A DNA stretch of 64,000 bases from a virus (IMGVR_UViG_3300044615_000494); one strand, 5' to 3'; shown: positions 1,301 through 53,693, numbered from the stretch's first letter. Translations and numbers: made by a program. Notes: generated by a model not told the origin, from the sequence alone.

Positions 1301-1377
1301 CGGAGTGTAGCACAGCCTGGTAGTGCGTCTGCTTTGGGAGCAGAAGGTCCAAGGTTCGAATCCTTGTACTCCGACCA
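1301..1377 (+). tRNA. tRNA-Pro(UGG)
   Basis: CGGAGTG acceptor, TCTGC-TT-TGG-GA-GCAGA anticodon arm, GGTTCGAATCC, CCA. Confidence 0.95.
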
Positions 1378-1389
1378 GTTTTACAATTT

Positions 1390-1464
1390 GCGGGATTAAC
1401 TCAGTGGTAGAGTAGCGCCTTTACACGGCGAATGTCGGGAGTTCGACCCTCTCATCCCGCACCA
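1390..1464 (+). tRNA. tRNA-Val(UAC)
   Basis: GCGGGAT acceptor, CGCC-TT-TAC-AC-GGCG anticodon arm, GTTCGA T-loop, CCA. Confidence 0.93.
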
Positions 1465-1465
1465 A

Positions 1466-2512
1466 TCAACTAAAGTCCTCATATGTGTCATCTCTCACAG
1501 TATCAAGGGTGGCGCAATGAGGACCACCGCTTAATGTGCGGCAATGACGCATACGAACCGGCATTATATCAAAACCGTTCGCTTCTAGTTGTTTTATGAG
1601 ATTAGTCTGACGCTCTTCTACAGCGATGAGTTTATCACTGAGGCTGAGGATGTTCATGCCTAACCAAGGACTTGCAGCCGCCCAATGCTCTTCATATGGA
1701 GTCTCAATCGGATCCGCCGCATAGATTTTCTTCCATGATTTAAAGAAAGAGGGAAGGTTATTCTCATTGACACGCTTAGGATTTAATAATACCGTTCCTG
1801 CCGCTAGCGGCATTATAGTAGTATCTAAATGCACATAAGCATAAACGTTAGTTAGCATATGAACACGATACTTATCGCCCAATGTAGACTGTAACCACTC
1901 AGCACCAAACTTGTTACCTGAGTTGCTTACTAGATAGAATAGATCCTTACCGCATTTAATGACGTTTGCCGCATCAAATGCAGGCTCAAACTCAGTTAGT
2001 GTATTGCGACTTAGATCCGTGCGATCATATAGTTGATCCAATAATTCTGGTTTAGGAGCACTGATCCAACGGCTGCCGTTCTTAAGATATTTTTTGAATA
2101 TGTCTCTATATGCTAACGTTTCAAAGTAACGTGCGCGTAAAGGCATAGGAGTCTCAATCAATGTGTCGCCCACTACTAACACGCTGTCTCTAGGACAGTA
2201 TAGATAATAGCCGTCACTTTTCCAATCTGGACTACCGAACTCTCTAGCACAATTCCTGATATCAGGACGTAATACATTGACACCTATATTTTCAAGTTGT
2301 TGCTTGAATACTTCTAGGTCTTCAATCGTTTCTTCACGAATTTTTTGTGAGTAGAATCCTCCCGGAAGATTATCTATAGCATCGTAGTTAGCATAATCTA
2401 CGCAATGTATATCATGGTTCTTGATAGTAGGTATCTGCGCAAACTCGGCTCTACCTAGTATGACTTCTTTTAGTCTGCCCCATTCTGTGTTGCTATTAAC
2501 TTTGTTTTCCAT
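1466..2512 (-). CDS. Amidinotransferase (AGAT/StrB1-like, pentein fold)
   Basis: NSNTEWGRLKEVILG N-terminus, CPRD, RYFE, FDAAN, HLDTT and RTLSGGPHC motifs, with the catalytic Asp/His/Cys retained; start set at MENKV. Confidence 0.9.
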   Translation of the reverse strand: MENKVNSNTEWGRLKEVILGRAEFAQIPTIKNHDIHCVDYANYDAIDNLPGGFYSQKIREETIEDLEVFKQQLENIGVNVLRPDIRNCAREFGSPDWKSDGYYLYCPRDSVLVVGDTLIETPMPLRARYFETLAYRDIFKKYLKNGSRWISAPKPELLDQLYDRTDLSRNTLTEFEPAFDAANVIKCGKDLFYLVSNSGNKFGAEWLQSTLGDKYRVHMLTNVYAYVHLDTTIMPLAAGTVLLNPKRVNENNLPSFFKSWKKIYAADPIETPYEEHWAAASPWLGMNILSLSDKLIAVEERQTNLIKQLEANGFDIMPVRMRHCRTLSGGPHCATLDTVRDDTYEDFS

Positions 2513-4305
2513 TTTTTTGTCCTTCTCCCTCGGTGGTATATGGCCTTGCAAAAATCTTGAAACCCTTCAATCTTTTCTGCTGACACAGTAAATTCATCAG
2601 TAGTATATGGATAGTCACGATCATGGCGTATCAGTGCATGATCATTTAGTTCGACATATTTTAAATACTCGCTACCGTATATATCTTCTATAAATTGTTT
2701 TAACGTTTTCAAATATTCATCACGATGTTTTTCAAATACTATAGCACTGGCACTCTCATATTCCCAATAAAAATCATTATCTCCAAATATCTGTCTGCCC
2801 CAGAATCCATTATTATCGAGCGTGTCTCGCAATGATTTTTTCGTGATATCATATTCTTTATTGACTATATTATCAGATCCTTTTATGTATTCATAGAATG
2901 CTTTGTATACCTTGCTTCTTCCTATATGTAAGTCTTTGCTTAACTTCTCTGCTACGATATTAGCCCATCCTAGGCTATGCATAGTGATCATGAAATACTT
3001 GAATAAGAATCCTTCTATATAATCATCATAACTCATAGTGCTATGAGAGATGACATATTTTCCTATCTCTAATGGTAAATCTTTATTTCTGTGCGCAAAG
3101 AAACTGACTTGTGGAGTGTATGCAAATTTCAAATCGTGTTTCTTGATATAAACAGGATCGCTGAATTCAGTATTCTCATATGCTTCTAACGGGTGTCCAA
3201 ATATCCATCCTTCTGGATTAATATCGATCACATAACTGATACCTTCTATCCAACTGTCTAATGTTTCACCCGGCAGCCCTAGTATGAAATCATGATATGT
3301 GGGTATGCCTAGATCGATATACTTTTTAGCGATCTCTTCTAGTCTGTCATTTGCTATATTGATGCGTTTGATATTACCCAATGCAGTTTTATTTTGTGAT
3401 TGTAGTGCTAACGTCACTCCGCCACGATTCATGCTATCTAATATCTTGCTCATCTCAAGCAAACGCTCAGGGCTATTCTTAGCCCATGTAGCATTGATCT
3501 TTTCGGGAAAACCGTTCTCGCCGTGTTTTTGTTTAATGTATTTTACTAAATCTAAGTCTCTAGGAAATATTCCAAAATTTGCATCTGCCACTTCAACATA
3601 TTCTATCTTACGCTCACTGAACCAGTCGATCTCTTTGATCAATCTTTCAGTCTCAAAGATATAGACTTTGTTGTAGTAATCAGCACCTAGATCACAGAAT
3701 GTACAGTGATATGGACAACCTCTATGCGTTTCCCATACAGGCATGAAATTATAATGTGGGTATCGCACAAAGAACTGATCGAATATACCTTCTAGATATG
3801 GGCTAGGAATCTGTGCTAGATCAGTTTTTCTTATGCGGGTTGCAGTCTTGTAATACTGATCATCTTTGATGTATGCTAGACCATTGACATTACTTAAATC
3901 TGTTTTATTTGCTATAGCAGATAACAGTTCATGTATCGTCTCTTCACCTTCGCCCCACATGCTGACATCAATGTAATCATGTTCTCTTAGATATGATTCA
4001 TGTTGTTGCGCGTTAGGTCCGCCTATACCTATGAATACGTTAGGATATAGTTTTTTCAGTTCTTTAGCAATAGATAGATGGTATGTCGTGTTCCAGCCAT
4101 AGTTACTAAACAATATTATATCGGGATCCTTGACCTTTTCAATGTAGTCTTTTACAGGAAGTTTTTCAAAAAAGATATCAGACAATATGTAATTGTCTTT
4201 TATCTCATTAAATTGACTAGCGTATGTCCATAGTATACCTGAACTATAAGGCAAGTATATACTATTGCCGTAACTTTCCTGGCATTGAAAAAAATATAAA
4301 TTCAT
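2470..4305 (-). CDS. B12-binding domain radical SAM protein
   Basis: WETHRGCPYHCTFCD (CxxxCxxC); N-terminal PYSSG...GGPN...GEGE cobalamin-binding-like domain; ADANFG, ALQS and FILGLPGET motifs. Confidence 0.85.
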   Translation of the reverse strand: MNLYFFQCQESYGNSIYLPYSSGILWTYASQFNEIKDNYILSDIFFEKLPVKDYIEKVKDPDIILFSNYGWNTTYHLSIAKELKKLYPNVFIGIGGPNAQQHESYLREHDYIDVSMWGEGEETIHELLSAIANKTDLSNVNGLAYIKDDQYYKTATRIRKTDLAQIPSPYLEGIFDQFFVRYPHYNFMPVWETHRGCPYHCTFCDLGADYYNKVYIFETERLIKEIDWFSERKIEYVEVADANFGIFPRDLDLVKYIKQKHGENGFPEKINATWAKNSPERLLEMSKILDSMNRGGVTLALQSQNKTALGNIKRINIANDRLEEIAKKYIDLGIPTYHDFILGLPGETLDSWIEGISYVIDINPEGWIFGHPLEAYENTEFSDPVYIKKHDLKFAYTPQVSFFAHRNKDLPLEIGKYVISHSTMSYDDYIEGFLFKYFMITMHSLGWANIVAEKLSKDLHIGRSKVYKAFYEYIKGSDNIVNKEYDITKKSLRDTLDNNGFWGRQIFGDNDFYWEYESASAIVFEKHRDEYLKTLKQFIEDIYGSEYLKYVELNDHALIRHDRDYPYTTDEFTVSAEKIEGFQDFCKAIYHRGRRTKKWKTKLIATQNGAD

Positions 4306-4949
4306 CCTAGATAACTGTTGAATATTGTTTGTTGGCTCAAGTCTGTATATGCTTCGTTAGACCCGGTGTCAGGATTATAATCTGGCAGTTCGTCTAATTT
4401 TAATATGCCTATCGCGGCATCTTCAGGAGTCATATACATATGATACCCTATACAGGCTAATTGATCATTTTTGTATAATACTTCTTTGTGTCTACCATCA
4501 TAGATCATGGGTCTGCACCAGTCTACGAATTGCTTATCATTAGTTAATATCACACCACCGCGACCTATCTTTAATGTTTTACGATGATGAAAACTCACGC
4601 AATAATATGAATCAGGTATGTACATATCCTTACAGAATCTTGTAGCACCATCTACTACGGGCGTGTTACCTAAGCAGTATTCGCCTGACCATTTCTTATC
4701 TATGAATCTGATCTTGTTGCCTGAATGTATGATCTGCATTGGTACAGATGCATAAGTATTTTTTGGTATCTCAATTACTGTATCTTTTATATCAAGATAC
4801 TTTAAACACAAGTATAATGCATTACTGCAACTATCAAGGCACACAGCATATTTTGACCCAGCATACTGCGCTAACTTGTCTTCAAATAAAGTAACGATGT
4901 CCCAAGGATCTTTGAATGTGTAACCTTTATTTGTGAGTTGGGATATCAT
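4302..4949 (-). CDS. Short DegT/DnrJ/EryC1/StrS-type PLP-dependent aminotransferase-like protein
   Basis: FEDKLAQYAGSKYAVCLDSCSNAL, VVDGA, SFHHRKTLKIGRGG (Schiff-base Lys position), GYHMYM; only 215 aa. Confidence 0.75.
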   Translation of the reverse strand: MISQLTNKGYTFKDPWDIVTLFEDKLAQYAGSKYAVCLDSCSNALYLCLKYLDIKDTVIEIPKNTYASVPMQIIHSGNKIRFIDKKWSGEYCLGNTPVVDGATRFCKDMYIPDSYYCVSFHHRKTLKIGRGGVILTNDKQFVDWCRPMIYDGRHKEVLYKNDQLACIGYHMYMTPEDAAIGILKLDELPDYNPDTGSNEAYTDLSQQTIFNSYLG

Positions 4950-5667
4950 AAGGCTCTCCTAAATCATTATCAAACCAATATAGACTGCGGTGCGGTCTGT
5001 CATCTTCTCTGTACTTTGCATCACTCACATAGAAAAACAATCTAAATGTATTTCTTGTACGATCTTCTGGGCATGTTATTGGATCTGGATATCCATGAAA
5101 ACCCCTTTTATGATAACGCCAAATAACTACTCTGTTAAACAATGTAGGAACTTGTTGTATTACTCGTTCGTTGTTGAAGTCTTTGAATTGCAATGCCCCG
5201 CCCCACTCTTCTTTCCATTCAGGATCGAGGTAAACTATTAGGCTCAACATTCGATGCAGTTTCAAACTATCATTCCAATTAAAATCAGTGTGGATTTTTA
5301 AACTATATCCTTTATATGTCCTAGAATATCCCGCACCAGTCAGATAGGGATCAGGTATTAGATCAGTTATTCCTGTGACCTTAGTTAACCAGTTCATACC
5401 TAACGCGCTGTGCATTACATTAGTGAACTCATAAGCCGCAGGGCAGGCTTCTAGATTATTACACTCTTTCATTAAACTTCCGCGTCTAGTAAAGTCGCGC
5501 CAGTGCTTGTCCGGAACTGTGACACACTCTTCATACATCTTTTGGGCATGATTTTTGGGTAAAAAATCGTCAAGGACTATCATAGGATATGGGGGAGTTC
5601 CCACGAAAGTGTTGTTAAGTTCTTGATAATTATTAAATTTATTACGGATGTAGTTGATGATTTCCAT
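4927..5667 (-). CDS. 2OG-Fe(II) oxygenase (prolyl-4-hydroxylase-like)
   Basis: IHTD, LSLIVYL..EWKEEWGGAL, FHGY and R.T motifs. Confidence 0.8.
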   Translation of the reverse strand: MEIINYIRNKFNNYQELNNTFVGTPPYPMIVLDDFLPKNHAQKMYEECVTVPDKHWRDFTRRGSLMKECNNLEACPAAYEFTNVMHSALGMNWLTKVTGITDLIPDPYLTGAGYSRTYKGYSLKIHTDFNWNDSLKLHRMLSLIVYLDPEWKEEWGGALQFKDFNNERVIQQVPTLFNRVVIWRYHKRGFHGYPDPITCPEDRTRNTFRLFFYVSDAKYREDDRPHRSLYWFDNDLGEPYDIPTHK

Positions 5668-5708
5668 TTATATGTTCTCCATAATATACTTATTCTTTAA
5701 GAAAAGGC

Positions 5709-5737
5709 TTGACAAGAAAGAGCAATGCATATATAAT
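5709..5737 (+). promoter_or_regulatory. sigma70 promoter for tRNA-Leu/tRNA-Ile2
   Basis: TTGACA-17-TATAAT consensus. Confidence 0.75.
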
Positions 5738-5756: not shown

Positions 5757-5841
5757 GCCTCGGTGGTGAAATTGGTAGACACAAGGGACTTAAAATCCCT
5801 CGCCGAAAGGTGTGCCGGTTCGAGTCCGGCCCGAGGCACCA
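5757..5841 (+). tRNA. tRNA-Leu(UAA)
   Basis: AGGGA-CT-TAA-AA-TCCCT anticodon arm, long variable arm, GGTTCGAGTCC, CCA. Confidence 0.95.
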
Positions 5842-5852
5842 ATCAGATTTCA

Positions 5853-5929
5853 GGGCCCTTAGCTCAATTGGTTAGAGCATCCGACTCATAATCGGCAGGT
5901 TCTGGGTTCAAGTCCCGGAGGGCCCACCA
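5853..5929 (+). tRNA. tRNA-Ile2(CAU) (or elongator Met)
   Basis: CGA-CT-CAT-AA-TCG anticodon arm; overall resemblance to bacterial lysidine-type tRNA-Ile2 (GGGCCCTTAGCTCA...GGTTAGAGCA...GGTTCAAGTCC...CACCA). Confidence 0.85.
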
Positions 5930-26416: not shown

Positions 26417-27541
26417 TTACAGACGAGGAAATTGTCTATGTAAGTAATTTAAATTTTGACGATCTGGCATACGTTCATACCAGCCCTTTCCTTCATACAC
26501 ATTGAGTATATTCTGGAAATATTCTTCATACATAGGGGCGACATGTTCTAGTGTAAAGTTCTCGGCCCATGTACGACAGTTTTGTGGTTTGATGTTAGTG
26601 ATGTTCTCTGTAGCCCAAACGAAATGATCGAATGTGCGACAACGATATCCGGTCACACCGTGTAGGTTGTTTTCAACAAACGAACCCCAATCTGTGGTAA
26701 TAGTCGGAGTGCCCGACATTAGCATCTCAATCTGTACGCCACCAAATGGTTCTATATACATGCTAGGCACATATGCACCTTTAGCATTAGCCATTAGTTT
26801 CTTTCTAGTAGGTACATCGGCATAGCCTACGAACTCAACGTGTTTTGGAAAATGCATGTCATCAGGCTTCTGTCCTGCGATAACTAATCGTTGACCTGCG
26901 GCTTCACTTGCTTGTATCGCTACATGAACACCTTTACCTGAGTACACACGGCCAAGATATAGCATGTAATCTTCTTTTTGATCATTGAATGTAAAATCAT
27001 CTGTATCGAAATAGTTCGGAATCACTACATCATACCAGTCAGATTTGCAAGTGCCCACTCCCTGCATTCCATAGTAGGCATGCATGATAGCATAACTTTC
27101 AAATACTTTCCAACGTGCCCAATGTCCGCCGGCATATCCTATGCCAGGTTCAACTACTATCATATCATGTTGATGTGCATCACAGATAGCACGAACGCCA
27201 CTACCCCAGAAGGGTAATATGAAATCGTTCTTTTGCTTGCGCTTACCTATCTCACGTATAGCGTTAGCATAGAAAGTTTGATAAGCATGGTCTGAAGTAT
27301 TGTAGGTAAAGAAGTTTTTACGCCAATCATAATTGCCGTATGCTTTTTCTAAATCTTTATTAGTTAGTACTGTGACATGTTCATCACAGACGAGGTCTGA
27401 TTCCTCATGACCATAATGGATGATCTCATGGCCACGGGCCTTCATCATCTTACCGAACTTAAGAACTTTTTGAGTATATGCACAAGCATTATATTCTTTG
27501 CTTGTGACCGTATGTGGTAAACCTAGTATATGAAATCTCAT
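26417..27541 (-). CDS. GT-B glycosyltransferase (GT4-like)
   Basis: YLGRV...[27 protein letters not shown] (E-x7-E motif). Confidence 0.88.
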
Positions 27542-27577
27542 ACGATTACTTATACTAGGTTACCTGTCAGTCAAAAA

Positions 27578-30157
<2,580 letters not shown>

Positions 30158-30175
30158 TCATCTGACGATATAAAA

Positions 30176-30847
30176 TTATGCACTAATAGCATTGCCACCA
30201 TTTAGTGACGCTAGTAGTAAAACTGAACTCGTTGCGTTTCCGCCATCACCGCTTACGCTAGGATCAATCTGAACCCAAGTTAAGTTGCCTGAACCATTCG
30301 TAGCAAGAACATATCCGTTTGAACCACCACTGATATAAACATTAGATACGGGTCCTAGATTTGCTGTGACTGTATTTAATGCCGTTGCATTCAACGTATT
30401 AATATTGGCTGTGGTATCAACTGATAATACTTGTGCTGCCTGATCATATCTAAAATTCGCACTAGCACCGAATAAATTATTATTATTGAACTGTACGTAT
30501 GTATTAGATCCGGCAGGATTGGCGATCTCGCTTTGTATGTTAGCCCATGTAAGATTTCCACTACCATTAGTACGCAACACGTAATTGTTGCTACCACCTG
30601 TGATCGTGATATTTCCTACTGCGCCTAGATTACTCTTACCTTCTACTGTAAGATTTTCAACAACGACATTGCCGAGGTTAGCATTGATGCTACCTGTTAC
30701 TGTGACATTTCCGCCTACTGTAAGATTACCTGAGATACTACCTTCACCTGTGACGGCAAGGTTGTCTACCAACAGGGTATCCCCTGCGGGCAGTTCTTGA
30801 ATTGTCTTCGTAGCAGAATTAGAAACTAGTGGATACTTATTTGCCAT
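30176..30847 (-). CDS. Fibre-associated structural protein
   Basis: Internal repeats GGSNxYVL.TNGSGNLTW; GSNTYVQFN module shared with neighbouring genes. Confidence 0.7.
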   Translation of the reverse strand: MANKYPLVSNSATKTIQELPAGDTLLVDNLAVTGEGSISGNLTVGGNVTVTGSINANLGNVVVENLTVEGKSNLGAVGNITITGGSNNYVLRTNGSGNLTWANIQSEIANPAGSNTYVQFNNNNLFGASANFRYDQAAQVLSVDTTANINTLNATALNTVTANLGPVSNVYISGGSNGYVLATNGSGNLTWVQIDPSVSGDGGNATSSVLLLASLNGGNAISA

Positions 30848-30872
30848 TGCTTAATCCTAATACTTGTATTTA

Positions 30873-31856
30873 TCATATTTGCGTAACATTGAGGTCTAGG
30901 TAACTTCCATCACGTTGGCCTACTGGATAAACGCGCAAAACAGGATCTGGACTGCTTAGATAATTGCTTCCGTCACGCATATCTACTGTGATATAATACA
31001 CAGGAACTGTTTTCCAGCCCATTTCTTGTGTATTTTGATTGATGATTCCTAGAACTTGTTGACTTGTTCCAGCACTGCTTGGAGGTATGAATGATGCATT
31101 GCCGCCTACTTTTGCGAACTTCGTTATACCTACAACGTTAGTATCTTTATTAAATGTGAATGCTGACGAACCGCCAAAAGTACCATTATCATTGAACTGT
31201 ATCGCTGTATTAGGACCGTCTGCTACTGCTGCTTTTTCCCAAGAAAGATTCCCTGTACCGTCTGTAACTATGACAAAATGATTGCTACCGCCGTATATTT
31301 TGACGTTACTAATGTTGCCTAGATTACTGATACCATTGATAGTCATTCCCGTACCTGAGAATGTGGCTACGTTTGCGTTGCCCGCTACACTTATGTTAAC
31401 ATTACCGTTAGCGACTGGAATTCTTACATTACTAGTACCGTTAGCGAGAGAAGCAGTTACTATGTTTGCGGTTATGACATTAGCATTTATTAGATCCGCA
31501 GTTATATCATCAACGGTGATGTCATTTGCAGTTATATTATTGACGGATAAATTACCAGTGACTGATAGATTTGATCCTATAGATACATTTCCCGAAACAG
31601 TTAATGAAGTCAATGTACCAACACTAGTGATGTTAGGTTGTGCATTATTTCTAATAGTGTTTGCTACATTAGCAGTATGAAGAGAATTACCTGCTTCATC
31701 AAGTATGAAGTTGCCTAACTGGAAAAGATTCGCTTGTAATGTCTGCCCGTCAGGTGTGGCTAATGTGACTGTAGGATCTACTACCGGAATTATTAGATTA
31801 CCGGAAACGACCTCTACATCATTCAAACCTGTTATTTTAGTACCGCGAGTAGCCAT
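30873..31856 (-). CDS. Fibre-associated structural protein
   Basis: KIT.L N-terminus; [12 protein letters not shown] and GPNTAIQFND modules. Confidence 0.7.
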   Translation of the reverse strand: MATRGTKITGLNDVEVVSGNLIIPVVDPTVTLATPDGQTLQANLFQLGNFILDEAGNSLHTANVANTIRNNAQPNITSVGTLTSLTVSGNVSIGSNLSVTGNLSVNNITANDITVDDITADLINANVITANIVTASLANGTSNVRIPVANGNVNISVAGNANVATFSGTGMTINGISNLGNISNVKIYGGSNHFVIVTDGTGNLSWEKAAVADGPNTAIQFNDNGTFGGSSAFTFNKDTNVVGITKFAKVGGNASFIPPSSAGTSQQVLGIINQNTQEMGWKTVPVYYITVDMRDGSNYLSSPDPVLRVYPVGQRDGSYLDLNVTQI

Positions 31857-31918
31857 ATTTTTATCCTATATAATCTATTTATCCTTATACTAATCTCTCT
31901 ATACTGATGTTCCACATA

Positions 31919-34900
31919 TTACCAGCTAGTAGTGCCTGTAAACTTAGCCCAAGTGTTTGCTGATACACAAACATATAAGTTACCACCACTGTCATAAGCA
32001 GCTTCACCTGCAGTACCATTTGAGGTATTTGCAACAGGAGCAGTACTCCAAACTACAGTGTTTGCATTGATGACAGGTAATGCAACAAACGTTCCGTTAC
32101 CATTCAATACATTACTTACATTACCATCTAAGTTTGTTGCTACGATATTACCAAATGCACTTGAACCGTTAGCAAAGTTGATTGCTACTGTATTACCGGG
32201 TAGTGTTAAGTTACCACTTTGGTCAAATGTCCAATCAGAATAAGTTCCTGGTGTAACTGTAGGTACACTCAACGTCAAACCATTGCTGCCGTCGTCACCT
32301 ATAACAACATCATTTGGTAAGACTATATCGCCAGTATTTACAAACGACCAAGTCGCAGTAGTGTTACTACTATCGCTAACTATCGTCACATTACCATGAG
32401 CATATAGATTTGCGTTGGAATCGCCGATTAGACTTAATCCCGTGATATTTCCACTATCATTTGCTTCAAGTGTTATGCTTACGTTAGCAATAACGCTTGT
32501 GGTGTCTGGCAGAGTTAAGTTACCATCAATACCAAATTTCCATTGTGCTGTATTACCAGCATTGTCATCACTATTGATAACAATATTACCTGTATTTGCT
32601 AACTTAACAAAGAGGTTATCACTACCTAAAAACAACTCAGTTTGATACAAGTTGCCACTAGTCAAGTGAATATGATCGCCGTCACCCGCTGTAGGATAAA
32701 CTAACAATTTTTGATTAGTAATTGAACCACTACCGTGTGGGTTCAGTGTAATAGTATTACCGGGATTGCCACTTGGAGTAAATCCTTCACTGTAGATAGA
32801 ACCACCTGCCGGTAATGTTAAGTTGCCGTCTGTACCAAATACCCAACTACTTGTATTACCGGTGTTAGCAAGATTGGTAGTCAATGTCATATTAGCATCA
32901 GTTGCCATCTCGCCGGTATCAGCGTAAAAAACTATCTTGTCGCCACTGAACCCAGACAAGTTTAAGTAGTCTGCTTGTATAGCAAGATTAGCAGGACCTG
33001 CTAATGAAACATCTGTAGATTGTATAGTAGGAGTCGAGCCACCAAAGATATTTAAGTATGGATCAGTATTACCTGCTACGTCACGTGGGAAGTTCAAGTT
33101 ACCATTTTCGTCAAATGTCCAACGAAGGGCTATACCATCACTTTCTTTTGTGTTTTCAATGTAGACTTGAGGCTTATCTATTAGATTATCTTTGAACGAT
33201 ACGTTTAGACGAGAAATCGCAGTATTAGATCCTGTGATACTATCTTCTACATATAGATCCCATACACCTGCTGTTTGGTATTCTACTGTTTTGACATTGG
33301 CAAATGTTGTTGTAAATGTGAGTGTGTCAGAACTTATGTTGCCATCATTACCAAATGTCCAAGCCTTTCCGTTACTATGAATGACTGCTTGATTGTTTGC
33401 GCCTGATGTAATCTCAAACGCAGTATTTTCACCGCCTAAGAATATATTGGCTGCTGGATCATCAATGTTACTGAACGCATATGCACGTAAGTGAATATGA
33501 CCAGGAGCCGTTGGATCCAATACTAATACTTGACTGTTGTAGTTAGCATCTGGTGTCAATGTCATTGTGCTGACATTTGGAAGTGTTGGGTCTAAACTAC
33601 TGTTAGCAATACTGTAAATTACGCTATTACCGTTTGGTAATACTAAGTTACCGTTAGCAGTAAAGTTCCAAATATTAGCACTGGGTCCGACAGCACCGGT
33701 TAATACTACAACATCTCCTGCGCCACCGCTTGGACTGTTTATGTAGATTGCTGATAAAGCACTTGCGTTACTGATATCATCTATCCATTGTAGTACAGCA
33801 CTACCGTTACCTTGACTGACCACACCAAATGGTGTGTTACTTGCTAATATAGCATCAGCACCAAATATACTTCCTATTACTACGTTACCACTTGGCAATG
33901 TCAATAAGCCATCTGTTCCAAATGTCCAAGTACTTGTGCTATTCGCTGTGATAGTCACATTGCCATCAACAGTTGCGATATCAAAATTACTATTACCATT
34001 TGCTATCGGTAGTGATGCGATACCAGACGGACCTGTTGCACCTGTATCACCTTGTGGACCAGTAGCACCAGTCGCGCCATCACTTCCGTTAGTACCTGCT
34101 GGGCCAGTGGCACCTGTTGCTCCATCACTTCCGTTAGAGCCAGCTGGACCAGTAGCACCTACAGCGCCTACAGCACCTTCTTCTGCCATTACGCTCCAGC
34201 GAACTGGATCATCTGGTGGCGCACTACCTGAATTACCATCGCCTATCTTGATGTATGAACTACCGGCATATGATACAACATCTCGTCCGCCGACATATGT
34301 TGTTGGTATAGGTTGCCAAGCACCCTGCCATACGAAACCTGGACCTGATGCGCCTGTTGCTCCATCACTTCCATTAGTACCGGCTGAGCCTGTTGCGCCC
34401 GTAGCGCCATCAACACCTGCTGTGCCTGTAGCACCAGTGGCGCCATCACTTCCGTTACTACCTGCTGGACCTGTAGCACCTGTAGCGCCGAACCCACCTG
34501 CTGACACCCACGTGCCATCGCCGGCAAGAACACTACTCACATTACCATCAAGATTAATATTTGCTATATTACCAATAGTACCTATGTTACCATTTGTGAC
34601 TTCGATATTATCAACAACTAATGTATTTCCGTTCGCTGTGAGTACAGCATTGCCTAATGTAATTGTGTTACCTGTTAACTGATCAAACAGAGTGACAGGT
34701 GCTCTAGTCAACGTAAACAAGTATATAAAAACATTACTTCCCGGAGCACTATCTACTGGAATATTAAAGTCAACATAACCAGATACAGGAGTTGTTGTTG
34801 ATATTGTATTTGTAACTGTCAATACAGTATTTGCAGGTGCACCACCTGTCAATAATTTAAATGAATCGTTTATTTTTAAAGATTCAAATATAGGTATGAA

Positions 34901-35920
34901 CACAGAATTGTCATTTGTTCTTATATACAATTCACTTGCAGTTGTCCACTCTACGAATGATATCCCTCCGATTCCTTCGCCACCGTCAATTAGTTGAGAA
35001 GTAGATAATTGACCAGAGTCAGATACACTGAGTGCTATGTCACCTAAATGTATTGTACTGTTGGCTAACCAGATATCTTTCCAACGATTTGTAGTATTAC
35101 CTAGATCATATGTAACGTTACTGATTGGATTCAAATTCGATAACACGCTTGTACCAACGCTCAAATAATCCATGTCAACTCTAGTGACTGTCATTACTCC
35201 ATCAGCAGGATTGTATTGTAGATTATCGTCAGCATCATTATGTAATGTAGTGTCACCGGGATCAGTAGTTAATACAATGTGGTAACTATAATTGTTGTTG
35301 ACTGCTTCTACTTCAACATTAGTAGCAGTACCTATAAAGTAATTTGCTGTGATATTACCTGCATTGCTGATGTTGAATCCATTAGCATCTACATTGGCAG
35401 TAAATGTATTATTAAACGCACCGGTAGCACCAGTCTCACCGGTCGCTCCTGTAGCACCTATAGTTGATGCGGGACCAGGTGGTCCTATAGGACCTGTCGC
35501 GCCTTCAGGGCCTGTTGCACCAGTAGCACCGTCATTACCGATCACACCGGTAGCACCTACCTGATCTACCCATCCTAAACTGCCATTACCGAACGTAGCA
35601 AGAACTTGACCTGCTGTACCACCTAACATAACAAAGTTGTTGGGGTAACCTACGTTTGTAGTTCCTACAACCGTCAATCCTGTTAATGTACCTACAGTAG
35701 TGATATTTGGCTGTGATGCGTTGATTACATTATATGCAAGATTTGCTATATCTGCGCTAGCAAAAAGATTACCACTCTCTCCTAAAATAAAGTTAGCAAG
35801 AGTCGCCACTGTGACTTTATCTGTGATGAACGTTCCGTTAGTACTAACGATAGGCATCAAGGCTTGTGACGTTAAGTTGCCATTGATGTTTGGAAGTTGT
35901 GATATTTTTATATTTGCCAT
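31919..35920 (-). CDS. Long tail fibre with collagen-like tracts (1333 aa)
   Basis: MANIKISQLP N-terminus; GAT collagen tracts; repeated W.F...GNLTLP modules; C-terminal GEAAYD...LYVCV..NTW. Confidence 0.85.
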   Translation of the reverse strand: MANIKISQLPNINGNLTSQALMPIVSTNGTFITDKVTVATLANFILGESGNLFASADIANLAYNVINASQPNITTVGTLTGLTVVGTTNVGYPNNFVMLGGTAGQVLATFGNGSLGWVDQVGATGVIGNDGATGATGPEGATGPIGPPGPASTIGATGATGETGATGAFNNTFTANVDANGFNISNAGNITANYFIGTATNVEVEAVNNNYSYHIVLTTDPGDTTLHNDADDNLQYNPADGVMTVTRVDMDYLSVGTSVLSNLNPISNVTYDLGNTTNRWKDIWLANSTIHLGDIALSVSDSGQLSTSQLIDGGEGIGGISFVEWTTASELYIRTNDNSVFIPIFESLKINDSFKLLTGGAPANTVLTVTNTISTTTPVSGYVDFNIPVDSAPGSNVFIYLFTLTRAPVTLFDQLTGNTITLGNAVLTANGNTLVVDNIEVTNGNIGTIGNIANINLDGNVSSVLAGDGTWVSAGGFGATGATGPAGSNGSDGATGATGTAGVDGATGATGSAGTNGSDGATGASGPGFVWQGAWQPIPTTYVGGRDVVSYAGSSYIKIGDGNSGSAPPDDPVRWSVMAEEGAVGAVGATGPAGSNGSDGATGATGPAGTNGSDGATGATGPQGDTGATGPSGIASLPIANGNSNFDIATVDGNVTITANSTSTWTFGTDGLLTLPSGNVVIGSIFGADAILASNTPFGVVSQGNGSAVLQWIDDISNASALSAIYINSPSGGAGDVVVLTGAVGPSANIWNFTANGNLVLPNGNSVIYSIANSSLDPTLPNVSTMTLTPDANYNSQVLVLDPTAPGHIHLRAYAFSNIDDPAANIFLGGENTAFEITSGANNQAVIHSNGKAWTFGNDGNISSDTLTFTTTFANVKTVEYQTAGVWDLYVEDSITGSNTAISRLNVSFKDNLIDKPQVYIENTKESDGIALRWTFDENGNLNFPRDVAGNTDPYLNIFGGSTPTIQSTDVSLAGPANLAIQADYLNLSGFSGDKIVFYADTGEMATDANMTLTTNLANTGNTSSWVFGTDGNLTLPAGGSIYSEGFTPSGNPGNTITLNPHGSGSITNQKLLVYPTAGDGDHIHLTSGNLYQTELFLGSDNLFVKLANTGNIVINSDDNAGNTAQWKFGIDGNLTLPDTTSVIANVSITLEANDSGNITGLSLIGDSNANLYAHGNVTIVSDSSNTTATWSFVNTGDIVLPNDVVIGDDGSNGLTLSVPTVTPGTYSDWTFDQSGNLTLPGNTVAINFANGSSAFGNIVATNLDGNVSNVLNGNGTFVALPVINANTVVWSTAPVANTSNGTAGEAAYDSGGNLYVCVSANTWAKFTGTTSW

Positions 35921-35925
35921 CTAAG

Positions 35926-37539
35926 TTATCCTATACGCCAGTCAGTACCGTCACTATAAACCGGAACTCTGTTACTGCCGCCACCTTCTACTTGTGCGGC
36001 AAAATTAGTTGCTGCGGCTAAATTCGCATCTGTAATAAATGATCTAGCACCTGTACCTGCTGTTGCCGCCGCGGGCAAAGATGAAAATGTTATCGGCTTT
36101 GTTCTAATTATATTATTTGCTACTACATTATTTGATGTAATATCGCCGGTAACTGCTAATGCTGTTAGTGTACCGACTGAAGTGATATTTGGTTGTGCCG
36201 CAGTTGTTACTGTACCGGCAGTAGTTGCTGAACCTGATGTTGCTACACTTAAGTTTGCTACTTGGGTAGTTGATGTTACTACAAGAGGAGCAGTACCCGT
36301 TGCTACAGTTGAAATCAACTGACCAGTTACATTAGCATTGCCTGCTGTTATGTTACCGGTAACTGTTAATATATTTGTAGTTTTATTGAATGTTAAGTTA
36401 GCACTACCATTTGCGATTGATGAATCATTAAAGATAATCTGTGTATTAGTGCCTGCAACCGGACCAGTAGCACCAGTAGCACCTATGCCAGTAGCACCAG
36501 TAGCACCTATGCCAGTAGCACCAGTAGCACCTATGCCAGTAGCACCAGTAGCACCTATACCTGTAGCCCCTGTCGCACCTATACCTGTTGCACCAGTAGC
36601 ACCTATGCCAGTAGCACCTGTTGCACCAGTAGCACCTGGTACTGTTACTGCGCTTGCGAACACACCGTTGCCGAATAATACATTACTACCATTACCGTCT
36701 CTATTCAGTAACGCAACGTTACCTAATCCTGTGATGTTGGCTACAGGCAGATTAGTTAACCCGCTACCGTTACCTGAGAAAACACCACCGGCTGTAATAT
36801 TATTTGCTATAGATAAGTTTGCAGGAAGATTAACACCTATGACACCTGCCCCCACTACAGGACTTCCTGTTACTACTAATTGACTGCTTGATATACCTAC
36901 GCTAGTGACTCCGCCACCACCACCAGTTGAACTTATTGTTACTTGACCAGTGTTACCGGTTAACGTGATGCCCGATCCAGCATTTAATCTAGTCACGCCT
37001 GCGTTAGTGATAGTGATAGTGCCGGTGGTTGTGATAGGACCACCTGCAACGCTAATACCTTCACCCGGGCTTACAGCAACACTTGTTACAGTACCCACGC
37101 TATTAGCATTAGCAATATTAACTACTCTACCATAAGTATCAACAGTTACAGTGGGATATGTATAAACACCCGGGGTAACGTTCGCACTTGCTAATGATAA
37201 TGTAACGTTTCCGGCATAGCCGCCACCCGATAGTCCCGTACCAGCAATTACGCCTGTTATACCGCCGCCATTGCCGCCTCCGCCTGTATTGATAATCCTA
37301 ATAGCACCGTTAGCATTTTCTAGTGCTATACCCGTGCCTGCTAGTAGATTTGCTGAGACTACGGTATTGTTTACATTGTTTACGACTGTGATACCATCGC
37401 CTGCTACGACTTTGCTAGCATCAGCAAATATCCTGTCGAAATTAGTGTTTACTTTTGTAAATGCGGTGTATAGACTATCGCTACCTGTGCTTTCGTTAGG
37501 TAGGCCTATATTGATCTGTAAATTTCCTGAAATAGCCAT
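35926..37539 (-). CDS. Fibre protein with GATGATGI repeats
   Basis: INIG.PN..TG.DSL..AF.KVN.NF N-terminus (T4-like tail/baseplate motif); AG.GI repeats; C-terminal [12 protein letters not shown]. Confidence 0.8.
36463..36636 (-). repeat. 24-bp tandem repeat (six units) encoding GATGATGI
   Basis: ACCTATGCCAGTAGCACCAGTAGC perfect at 36481, 36505 and 36529; degenerate at 36553, 36577 and 36601. Confidence 0.9.
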
Positions 37540-52561: not shown

Positions 52562-53686
52562 TTATTTCTTATCTACTAAAAAATCAACCATTTCGGGAAA
52601 AGTATTCTTAAAGTTTAATTTACGAAAACCATCGTGCCTCACTAATCTATATCTAAACGTATCAAAGTGTTTGCTGTCGTCTTCAGTATTCAACAGCAAG
52701 ATGAACGGGCTTAGATCAAAACGGCAATTCTCTAATCGATTTATGATGAATTGTTTAGCGTCTTCTCTCCATACAGTAGGTCTTAAGTGAACTGGGTTAT
52801 GTACCCTGCCTAGATAAGGCAACCCTAATCCTATGTCATCACACCATTCTACTAACTCATTTAGATACGCAATATTATATGCGCTGACTGTAGTAGAAAC
52901 ACCTAGTTTGATACTGCTACTGTTTCTAAGTTCTATATATTTTTTTATGTTAGATAGCACTTCTTCCCATACTGCAGGATACCTGATATATTCAAATTTA
53001 TCAGCCACACCATCTATGCTCAACTGCAATTCTACTTCGTTGAAGTGGCTCCATATCTCTAACCATTCATCATCAGGAAACTTAGTGCAGTTTGTTGTAT
53101 AATGAAGGCTGATATCTTTAGCAGAGTTATCATTTATATACATGCGTAACAACTCTTTTTGTTGCTTGACACCACTCAGTAAAGGCTCACCGCCCGGTAT
53201 ATCAAGATGAATCAGATTGGGTGTCTTATCTTTAAAACTCTGTACGAAATCTTCTTTGTAAAAATGATTAGGTTTGACATCCTTACCTAAAAGTATCTTC
53301 CATTCTTGTTGCCATTTACTTGATGCTGATGGGTCGCAGGTTATACAACTCAGATTACATGTGTTTCCGAACGCTACACTAGCGGTGACGAAACCTTTAT
53401 CCTCTGATAATAATGAGCCCCAACGTTCATGGTCTTGAACACGCTTGCTACGTATATCGTTAGCCTCTTCGATCTTACAACGTTCACAACCCTTAGGCCA
53501 TTTTCCTTCTTTGAAATCTCGTTTTACTTCTTTTAGTGTGGGGCTATTGATATATTCATCTATAGATGATGAATTGATGTTGCTAGGTCTGTTGGGATAT
53601 AGAGAACTTTTAAACTTACAGCAAGGAGACATCTCTCCTTGCGGAGAGATGTCTATGTTAGTCCATGGTAATGAACAATAGGGCAT
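52562..53686 (-). CDS. Radical SAM protein with twitch/SPASM-like N-terminal domain
   Basis: CSLPW...PCC...C..C; GNTCNLSCITC; GGEPLL; TTN; SIDG; YIRYP. Confidence 0.88.
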   Translation of the reverse strand: MPYCSLPWTNIDISPQGEMSPCCKFKSSLYPNRPSNINSSSIDEYINSPTLKEVKRDFKEGKWPKGCERCKIEEANDIRSKRVQDHERWGSLLSEDKGFVTASVAFGNTCNLSCITCDPSASSKWQQEWKILLGKDVKPNHFYKEDFVQSFKDKTPNLIHLDIPGGEPLLSGVKQQKELLRMYINDNSAKDISLHYTTNCTKFPDDEWLEIWSHFNEVELQLSIDGVADKFEYIRYPAVWEEVLSNIKKYIELRNSSSIKLGVSTTVSAYNIAYLNELVEWCDDIGLGLPYLGRVHNPVHLRPTVWREDAKQFIINRLENCRFDLSPFILLLNTEDDSKHFDTFRYRLVRHDGFRKLNFKNTFPEMVDFLVDKK

Positions 53687-53693
53687 CAACTAC

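Follow-up and report, generated by a model that had tools for sequence, protein, structure and literature searches.

In the streptidine pathway of streptomycin biosynthesis, the amidinotransferase StrB1 and the DegT/StrS-type enzyme StsC, which depends on pyridoxal phosphate (PLP), work by a logic of oxidation, amination, and amidination. Two sets of phage genes in print contain related enzymes. Campylobacter phages CP220 and CPt10 have interchangeable modules with five radical S-adenosylmethionine (SAM) genes and a putative glycine amidinotransferase (Timms et al. 2010, PMC2853527), and the homologues in the Synechococcus phage S-SCSM2R were labeled "antibiotic synthesis genes" in a 2025 study that detected an amidinotransferase and a prolyl-hydroxylase-like protein in the virion preparation (PMC12801897). 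Both papers list similar genes, the function of which is established in neither, and our literature searches returned no functional study of a phage amidinotransferase. Here we describe a 4.2-kb cassette of four genes in a 64-kb stretch of DNA (the window) from IMGVR_UViG_3300044615_000494, a large, uncultured, cyanophage-related phage from a lake. The cassette encodes a 2-oxoglutarate (2OG) oxygenase, a small DegT-type protein (mini-DegT), a cobalamin (B12)-dependent radical SAM enzyme, and an amidinotransferase. The original prediction for this locus held that no phage pathway of this composition has been characterized, which is correct, with the similar sets of CP220 (PMC2853527) and S-SCSM2R (PMC12801897) already in print.

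We think that there is about an even chance that the cassette tailors a sugar or glycan through oxidation, amination, amidination, and C-methylation. In the first step, a carbon of a sugar that is probably carried on a nucleotide or already within a glycan would be converted to a ketone, with either the 2OG oxygenase or an enzyme encoded elsewhere as the oxidant. Mini-DegT would turn the ketone into an amine, onto which the amidinotransferase would place the amidino group of L-arginine via a thiouronium intermediate at Cys333 to give a guanidino sugar. The cobalamin radical SAM enzyme would methylate an unactivated carbon once or more, and the end product would be a positively charged, methylated guanidino sugar position. 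The acceptor may be the virion, the host surface, or DNA; because transcription of the operon is probably late, the cationic sugar would most likely sit on a glycan made in virion assembly, and virion proteins are our first guess. Pfam, NCBIfam, and PDB searches back the family assignments of all four genes, and the catalytic residues of each protein are conserved among its homologues. The enzyme families are known ones; what is uncharacterized is their combination, together with the phage-specific amidinotransferase clade, the mini-DegT family, and a fusion partner of mini-DegT that is described below.

The final gene of the cassette encodes a protein that, by its full-length homology, catalytic triad, and short architecture, is a StrB1-type amidinotransferase of the pentein/GME superfamily. 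It matches StrB1 of Streptomyces griseus (1bwd) with an E-value of 4.3e-101 over residues 5-345 in a near-gapless alignment of 348 with 348 aa. Matches to SxtG, HsvA, and AGAT are weaker (E 1e-65 to 1e-56), the alignment to SxtG requires insertions, and the PF02274 score lies under its cut-off (19.4 vs 22.8). D180, H228, and C333 align with D179, H227, and C332 of StrB1 and are invariant in 24 homologues, in keeping with the earlier statement that the Asp/His/Cys triad is retained. AGAT-type insertions are absent from the short, StrB1-type architecture, and a tree places the protein apart from the 390-aa bacterial forms. The enzyme is predicted to take the amidino group from L-arginine and pass it on to an amine. 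Structural work on StrB1 describes an open pocket that takes bulky amines, a property of StrB1-type enzymes that speaks for sugar tailoring.

At E ≤ 1e-20 the database contains 1418 relatives of the amidinotransferase, the best 120 of which are 65-91% identical to it, and 369 stretches in IMG/VR match it. When one genome from each of 185,579 prokaryotic species was searched, the best cellular match was 47% identical and came from Pseudobdellovibrionaceae/Bdellovibrionales and Victivallales metagenome-assembled genomes (MAGs), followed by actinomycetes, whose homologues are 36-46% identical and form a clade of their own. In the tree, the sequence from the window falls within a viral clade (support 0.999) that is nested in the short StrB1-type group and neighbors other viral clades and a few MAG sequences, away from the 390-aa AGAT-like bacterial proteins. 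The likeness to the StrB1/StsC system thus extends to the length, the triad, the end-to-end alignment, the presence of a DegT/StrS PLP partner, as with StsC, and the oxidize-aminate-amidinate logic. The differences are that the clades are dominated by phages, that cellular homologues reach at most 47% identity, and that the PLP partner in the cassette is a 215-aa minimal form. We note that five related loci (L013-L016 and L019; 2443-3423, 7983-9041) have two amidinotransferase paralogues, one per strand, around the genes for the B12 enzyme, mini-DegT, and the oxygenase.

Mini-DegT matches PF01041 with 79.1 bits (cut-off 19.8), split in two stretches, and its alignment with solved sugar aminotransferases omits the C-terminal domain altogether and ∼47 residues within the large domain. 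The earlier call of a DegT-type aminotransferase missed that the protein is a minimal form of 215 aa, vs ∼370 aa for a normal enzyme. The two-domain architecture of ∼360-400 aa is not present, and we describe the protein as DegT-like rather than as a canonical member. K124 aligns to Lys188 of ArnB, the residue changed in the K188A structure, and K124, D100, and Y66 are invariant in 12 mini-DegT homologues. The fold matches of an AlphaFold2 model (predicted local distance difference test score, pLDDT, of 86) are all nucleoside diphosphate (NDP)-sugar aminotransferases, including WbpE and related enzymes. A profile search of 1.84 billion representative proteins, clustered at 50% identity, returned 306 clusters at E ≤ 1e-30. 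Among the best 150 of these, 127 representatives have no more than 262 aa, which argues that mini-DegT is a genuine minimal family and no broken gene.

The 611-aa enzyme encoded by the third gene is probably a class B cobalamin-dependent radical SAM C-methyltransferase, as judged from its domains and closest structural relatives. It contains both PF02310 (36.8 bits vs a cut-off of 32.1) and PF04055 (53.3 vs 29.5), and it matches TokK (7kdx) at E 1.5e-69 over residues 16-481, a 466-residue alignment, and CysS at E 1.3e-46. The cluster motif CPYHCTFC (CxxxCxxC) at residue 197 is kept in 15/15 distinct homologues of full length (≥500 aa) from the loci retrieved. The B12-binding N-terminus and the radical SAM core are shared with TokK/ThnK, CysS, and KedN5; the score of 220 bits for the KedN5 NCBIfam family is far short of its 700-bit cut-off, which makes the enzyme a relative and no equivalog of KedN5. 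Two divergent subfamilies of the B12 enzyme, ∼30% identical to each other, serve the cassette in different phages.

That StrB1 acts in streptomycin, TokK in carbapenem, and CysS in cystobactamid methylation raises the question of whether the product is a free small molecule, such as an aminocyclitol, an aminoglycoside-like compound, or another guanidino metabolite, used as an antibiotic, signal, or metabolic aid. Carbamoyltransferases found in related islands resemble those that tailor bluensidine and tobramycin, which also favors such a product, as does the label given to the S-SCSM2R genes (PMC12801897). We nevertheless consider a free small molecule unlikely. No inositol-phosphate synthase, cyclitol dehydrogenase, kinase, exporter, or resistance gene was found among the Pfam-scanned neighbors in the window and the loci, many of which have no family match. 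The late-type promoter and a short lytic cycle argue against a secreted antibiotic, and the actinomycete amidinotransferases, at 36-46% identity, belong to a separate clade.

The oxygenase matches PF13640 with 51 bits. H126, D128, and R205 are invariant and H191 is nearly invariant in 12 homologues, which accounts for the HxD...H iron triad and the basic 2OG residue. The best Foldseek matches of its AlphaFold2 model (pLDDT 81) are Tpa1, OGFOD1, and PHD2, and there is a weak NCBIfam match to a peptide-maturing 2OG oxygenase. These resemblances favor the explanation that the cassette modifies a phage or host protein, or a ribosomal peptide, by hydroxylation, C-methylation, and conversion of Lys to homoarginine. 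B12 radical SAM enzymes and SPASM radical SAM paralogues, the latter in rows of up to five in L166, L168, and CP220, are typical of peptide maturation, and the virion preparation of S-SCSM2R contained an amidinotransferase and a prolyl-hydroxylase-like protein (PMC12801897). The remaining components of the cassette and its relatives fit this explanation less well, and we hold it to be improbable. We know of no usual role in peptide maturation for a DegT-type enzyme or a UDP-sugar dehydrogenase, and to our knowledge StrB1-type enzymes do not act on proteins. No candidate for a precursor peptide turned up, and no search was aimed at one.

The case for a joint function comes from conserved linkage. 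We clustered 1406 open reading frames (ORFs) from 80 viral loci, which are given L numbers here, and the window. All four families lie within 8 kb of one another in 21 of the 29 viral loci with an amidinotransferase at least 63% identical to that in the window, in at least six arrangements, so that co-occurrence in related genomes, on which the original prediction had been staked beforehand, is upheld. The gene order of the window recurs in L011, L030, L020, L021, and L165, the last with cassette proteins 79-89% identical to those of the window, and the metagenome contigs L164, L166, L168, L170, and L173 also carry the cassette. In the protein database, the longest contigs of an amidinotransferase cluster and of a B12-enzyme cluster are equal in length in no fewer than 19 pairs, which suggests co-location. 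Outside viruses, a 171-kb contig of a Pseudobdellovibrionaceae (Bdellovibrio-like) MAG has a minimal triad of mini-DegT, a 437-aa partner protein of the type found in the viruses, and the amidinotransferase (L088:5952-9029), surrounded by ordinary bacterial genes (DUF885, AIR-synthase-like, PilZ, cardiolipin-synthase-like); this triad may be a cellular version of the system.

Such linkage makes it very improbable, in our estimate, that the cassette is a set of four unrelated auxiliary metabolic genes that lie side by side, for example for guanidinoacetate synthesis or arginine recycling. Each of the families does have stand-alone cellular roles, and the cassette of the window is remote from other sugar genes. 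The linkage nonetheless persists in several gene orders and among proteins as little as 63% identical, the overlapping reading frames suggest translational coupling, mini-DegT and the amidinotransferase are still linked in the bacterial MAG, and the amidinotransferase is of the StrB1 type, not of the glycine-specific AGAT type.

Among cultured phages, DNA searches returned only tRNA matches, and protein searches found homologues of the amidinotransferase only in S-SCSM2R and Campylobacter phages and none of the B12 enzyme. The amidinotransferases of CP220/CPt10 and S-SCSM2R are homologous (33% and 38% identity) and lie among radical SAM and glycosyltransferase genes, and S-SCSM2R has a 195-aa mini-DegT and 2OG oxygenases beside its amidinotransferase; gene content and order differ from the cassette, and cultured phages have no homologue of the B12 radical SAM gene. 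The homologues in S-SCSM2R and CP220 sit among glycosyltransferases, and in Flavobacterium phage immuto a mini-DegT gene lies inside a block of glycosyltransferase and NDP-sugar epimerase genes. A gene for a family 1 glycosyltransferase (GT1) in the window is 72% identical to that of S-CAM7/ACG-2014f, from which the phage appears to be related to large Synechococcus myoviruses; in a protein search, S-CAM7/ACG-2014f phages were without the cassette. The cassette is portable and is carried by a lineage of large, uncultured phages from freshwater and marine environments.

The neighbors of the cassette in related islands point to sugar chemistry. A UDP-glucose/GDP-mannose-dehydrogenase-family gene (phrog_9148, E 1.6e-97) is often directly adjacent, and the islands also contain a NodU/CmcH carbamoyltransferase, an RmlC-like cupin, DUF6071, and several radical SAM/SPASM genes. 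Taken with the NDP-sugar-aminotransferase fold of mini-DegT, the UDP-sugar dehydrogenase, RmlC-like, and carbamoyltransferase neighbors make a nucleotide-bound or glycan-bound sugar the likely substrate, and because these neighbors are nucleotide-sugar enzymes, the acceptor is likelier to be a sugar than a cyclitol phosphate. The arrangement recalls WbpA/WbpB/WbpE and the NDP-amino-sugar O-antigen pathways, in that the related islands have the gene of the UDP-sugar 6-dehydrogenase family beside those for the oxidase, the DegT-type protein, and the amidinotransferase, and in that an oxidation coupled to 2-oxoglutarate/glutamate would by analogy be followed by transamination. It differs in that the amine would be amidinated instead of acetylated, that the oxidant would be an Fe/2OG oxygenase instead of an NAD-dependent dehydrogenase, and that the dehydrogenase gene is absent from this window. 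A DegT-type enzyme encoded by a large virus is also a point of likeness to viral pathways that make unusual sugars for virion glycans, such as the fibril sugars of Mimivirus. Directly after the cassette, L166 (4483-10996) and L168 (8649-15168) have five phrog_14086-like radical SAM paralogues in a row, an arrangement like that in CP220, where five radical SAM genes adjoin the amidinotransferase gene. The window itself encodes a radical SAM protein (52562-53689) that has a SPASM-like domain at its N-terminus and shares its PHROG with the 508-aa radical SAM genes found in related islands, and a HAD hydrolase fused to a phage DUF (39861-41282).

In a viral clade of ∼50% identity (L036-L056, L080, and others), the amidinotransferase has two flanking neighbors, an RmlC-like cupin and a protein of 360-526 aa that has the amino-methyltransferase motif DFIFTSPPYF and a weak N6_N4_Mtase match (e.g., L053:9036-10616). 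This family (cluster 3) is found no more than 8 kb from the amidinotransferase in 27 loci, mostly directly adjacent to it. The presence of an amino-methyltransferase-like gene with an SPPY motif in these 27 loci of a more distant viral clade would fit a role of the cassette in hypermodification of DNA or of the nucleotide pool, in which bases fitted with a cationic sugar or side chain that bears a guanidino group would shield the DNA from host nucleases. Thymidine hypermodification, which reportedly uses PLP and radical SAM enzymes, would be a precedent. Several observations make us doubt this role, which we regard as improbable. Five related records with the cassette, of which one is 93% complete, gave no PF01702 (TGT/DpdA) match in a search that a divergent DpdA could escape, and no base-modifying enzyme is adjacent in the examined loci, in which hydroxymethylases were not searched for. 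The UDP-sugar dehydrogenase, RmlC-like, and carbamoyltransferase neighbors, moreover, are a better match to glycan chemistry. A link to deazaguanine DNA modification was also considered and rejected, as the five related records gave no TGT match.

The related islands have in addition a family of proteins of 400-720 aa that we found only in viruses, in two to four copies per island (e.g., L006:5615-6820, L017:2150-4213, L064:5193-7992). In L060, and in six or more representative clusters, mini-DegT continues at its C-terminus into a member of this family, a fusion that speaks for joint action of the two proteins. The family has no Pfam match in any of its 16 members, no PDB profile match, and no PHROG match. 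A protein-atlas search gave a weak GT10 lead (score 0.80), by which identity as a glycosyltransferase is not confirmed. We note that a conserved C-terminal motif, SEKxxKP...HPF...G...IDESYD, resembles a glycosyltransferase signature. An 857-aa neighbor also drew no family assignment.

The features of the cassette and its flanks are listed in Table 1. The last minus-strand ORF was called as 1466-2551; homologues begin at an internal ATG at 2512, which we take as the true start of the amidinotransferase, and with this start consecutive frames overlap by 23, 4, and 43 nt. The overlapping frames suggest that translation is coupled. The ORF calls and the corrected start agree with the original description of four overlapping minus-strand genes.

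Table 1. Positions of the cassette genes, flanking tRNA genes, and upstream signals in the window
Feature	Position	Strand	Remarks
2OG-Fe(II) oxygenase, 246 aa, prolyl-4-hydroxylase-like	4927..5667	-	operon gene 1
Mini-DegT, 215 aa, PLP-dependent sugar-aminotransferase-like	4302..4949	-	gene 2
Cobalamin-dependent class B radical SAM enzyme, 611 aa, probable C-methyltransferase	2470..4305	-	gene 3
StrB1-type L-arginine amidinotransferase, 348 aa	1466..2512	-	final gene
tRNA-Pro	1301-1377	+	ARAGORN
tRNA-Val(TAC)	1390-1464	+	ARAGORN; convergent with operon end; CCA encoded at 1462-1464
tRNA-Leu(TAA)	5757-5841	+	ARAGORN; divergent from operon
tRNA-Met	5853-5929		ARAGORN
Perfect sigma-70 promoter, TTGACA-17-TATAAT	5709-5737	+	pointing at tRNA-Leu
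GGAG ribosome-binding site	5677-5680	-	before oxygenase gene
ATAAGTAT	5686-5693	-	one mismatch from late-type ATAAATA; 25 nt before first start codon

The TGA stop codon of the amidinotransferase (1466-1468) is separated by 1 nt from the CCA of tRNA-Val, and the operon lies between tRNA-Val and the promoter of tRNA-Leu, both as first described. This tRNA site is common only to the closest relative, L165 (JACCDP010396846.1), in which tRNA-Leu/Met flank one side and tRNA-Val/Pro the other, again with a 1-nt gap. In 10 of 11 other related loci there is no tRNA within 8 kb, and the remaining locus has a tmRNA-like call only. The flanks look incidental; the tRNA boundary is not a trait of the system, contrary to what was first proposed, and we reject a functional role for the flanks. 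In L165 (3309-16385), the 13 tRNA genes have a radical SAM gene and one gene of the virus-only family interspersed among them, and the tRNA array in the lineage of the window and L165 seems to serve such genes as a landing pad. In one viral contig, ARAGORN called a tmRNA-like gene with the tag ANAANDEVFALAA directly downstream of the amidinotransferase (L020:9126-9465).

Upstream of the oxygenase gene, the GGAG site predicted earlier is present. The accompanying TAAGTA is not enriched in the window, with 9 matches vs 5.9 expected, and was dropped as a motif in itself. In 70 nt upstream of each of the 89 ORFs in the window, the dominant word by k-mer count is TAAATA/ATAAAT, which is found in 19 upstream regions with 7.8-fold enrichment, and ATAAATA is placed at -25/-26 before the tail-fiber genes at 30176, 30873, and 35926. 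The operon has AATAAGTA at -25, with one mismatch to ATAAATA and the same spacing as in the fiber genes, so we reread TAAGTA as a near-consensus ATAAATA; the late-type assignment survives in this form. The shared distance and the single mismatch make late transcription of the operon plausible.

The window also encodes two tail-fiber-like proteins of 854 and 1333 aa (26417-37539) with long collagen-like Gly-x-Thr repeats. Thr is found in 65 of 114 Y positions of the repeats and a GT1 gene lies immediately downstream, which suggests that these fibers are O-glycosylated, and they would be natural targets for such a modification. The cellular analogue is the collagen-like BclA of Bacillus with its O-glycans, with which the phage is compared for its GxT-repeat fibers and the adjoining GT1. 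Because collagen-like genes do not accompany the cassette in relatives, we set a link between cassette and fibers aside as unsupported and treat the fibers as acceptor only as a local hint.

A number of points weigh against sugar tailoring. The virus-only partner family is not shown to be a glycosyltransferase by the Pfam, PHROG, PDB, and protein-atlas searches. In this window, no glycosyltransferase, UDP-sugar dehydrogenase, or partner-family gene adjoins the cassette, and sugar genes occur solely at distances of more than 20 kb from it. The oxygenase, as modeled, looks like protein prolyl hydroxylases and like no known sugar oxidase, and mini-DegT, with a whole domain missing, is a putative aminotransferase. 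As to fibers as the acceptor, none of 80 loci has a collagen-like ORF at up to 8 kb from the cassette, and there is no collagen-like gene in five related records, in a search that may miss low-complexity sequence. The product, substrate, acceptor, and order of steps are ones that we infer and did not observe. The pathway originally proposed is thus borne out in its enzymes, its operon, and the co-occurrence of its genes; the neighbors in relatives make its sugar logic likelier, the tRNA boundary did not hold, and the oxygenase looks unlike a known sugar oxidase.

We put forward, as a tentative proposal with somewhat less than an even chance of being right, that large lake and ocean phages use a phage-specific StrB1-type amidinotransferase, a new family of minimal PLP aminotransferases, and a B12 radical SAM methylase to make a C-methylated guanidino sugar not known from any glycan. 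Placed on virions or DNA, this sugar would be a cationic decoration that alters adsorption or evasion of defenses. If so, a guanidino-sugar pathway would be described for the first time in a virus, and for the first time beyond the aminoglycoside antibiotics. Environmental viromes are rich in these enzymes, with 369 amidinotransferase loci in IMG/VR and >300 mini-DegT clusters at 50% identity. Tailoring of this kind would explain what the radical SAM and amidinotransferase modules do in Campylobacter phages, where they have long been a puzzle, and what role the "antibiotic genes" have in S-SCSM2R, and it would define a minimal scaffold for PLP aminotransferases. It would also represent a new kind of cationic decoration of a surface or of DNA, relevant to phage adsorption and host defense.

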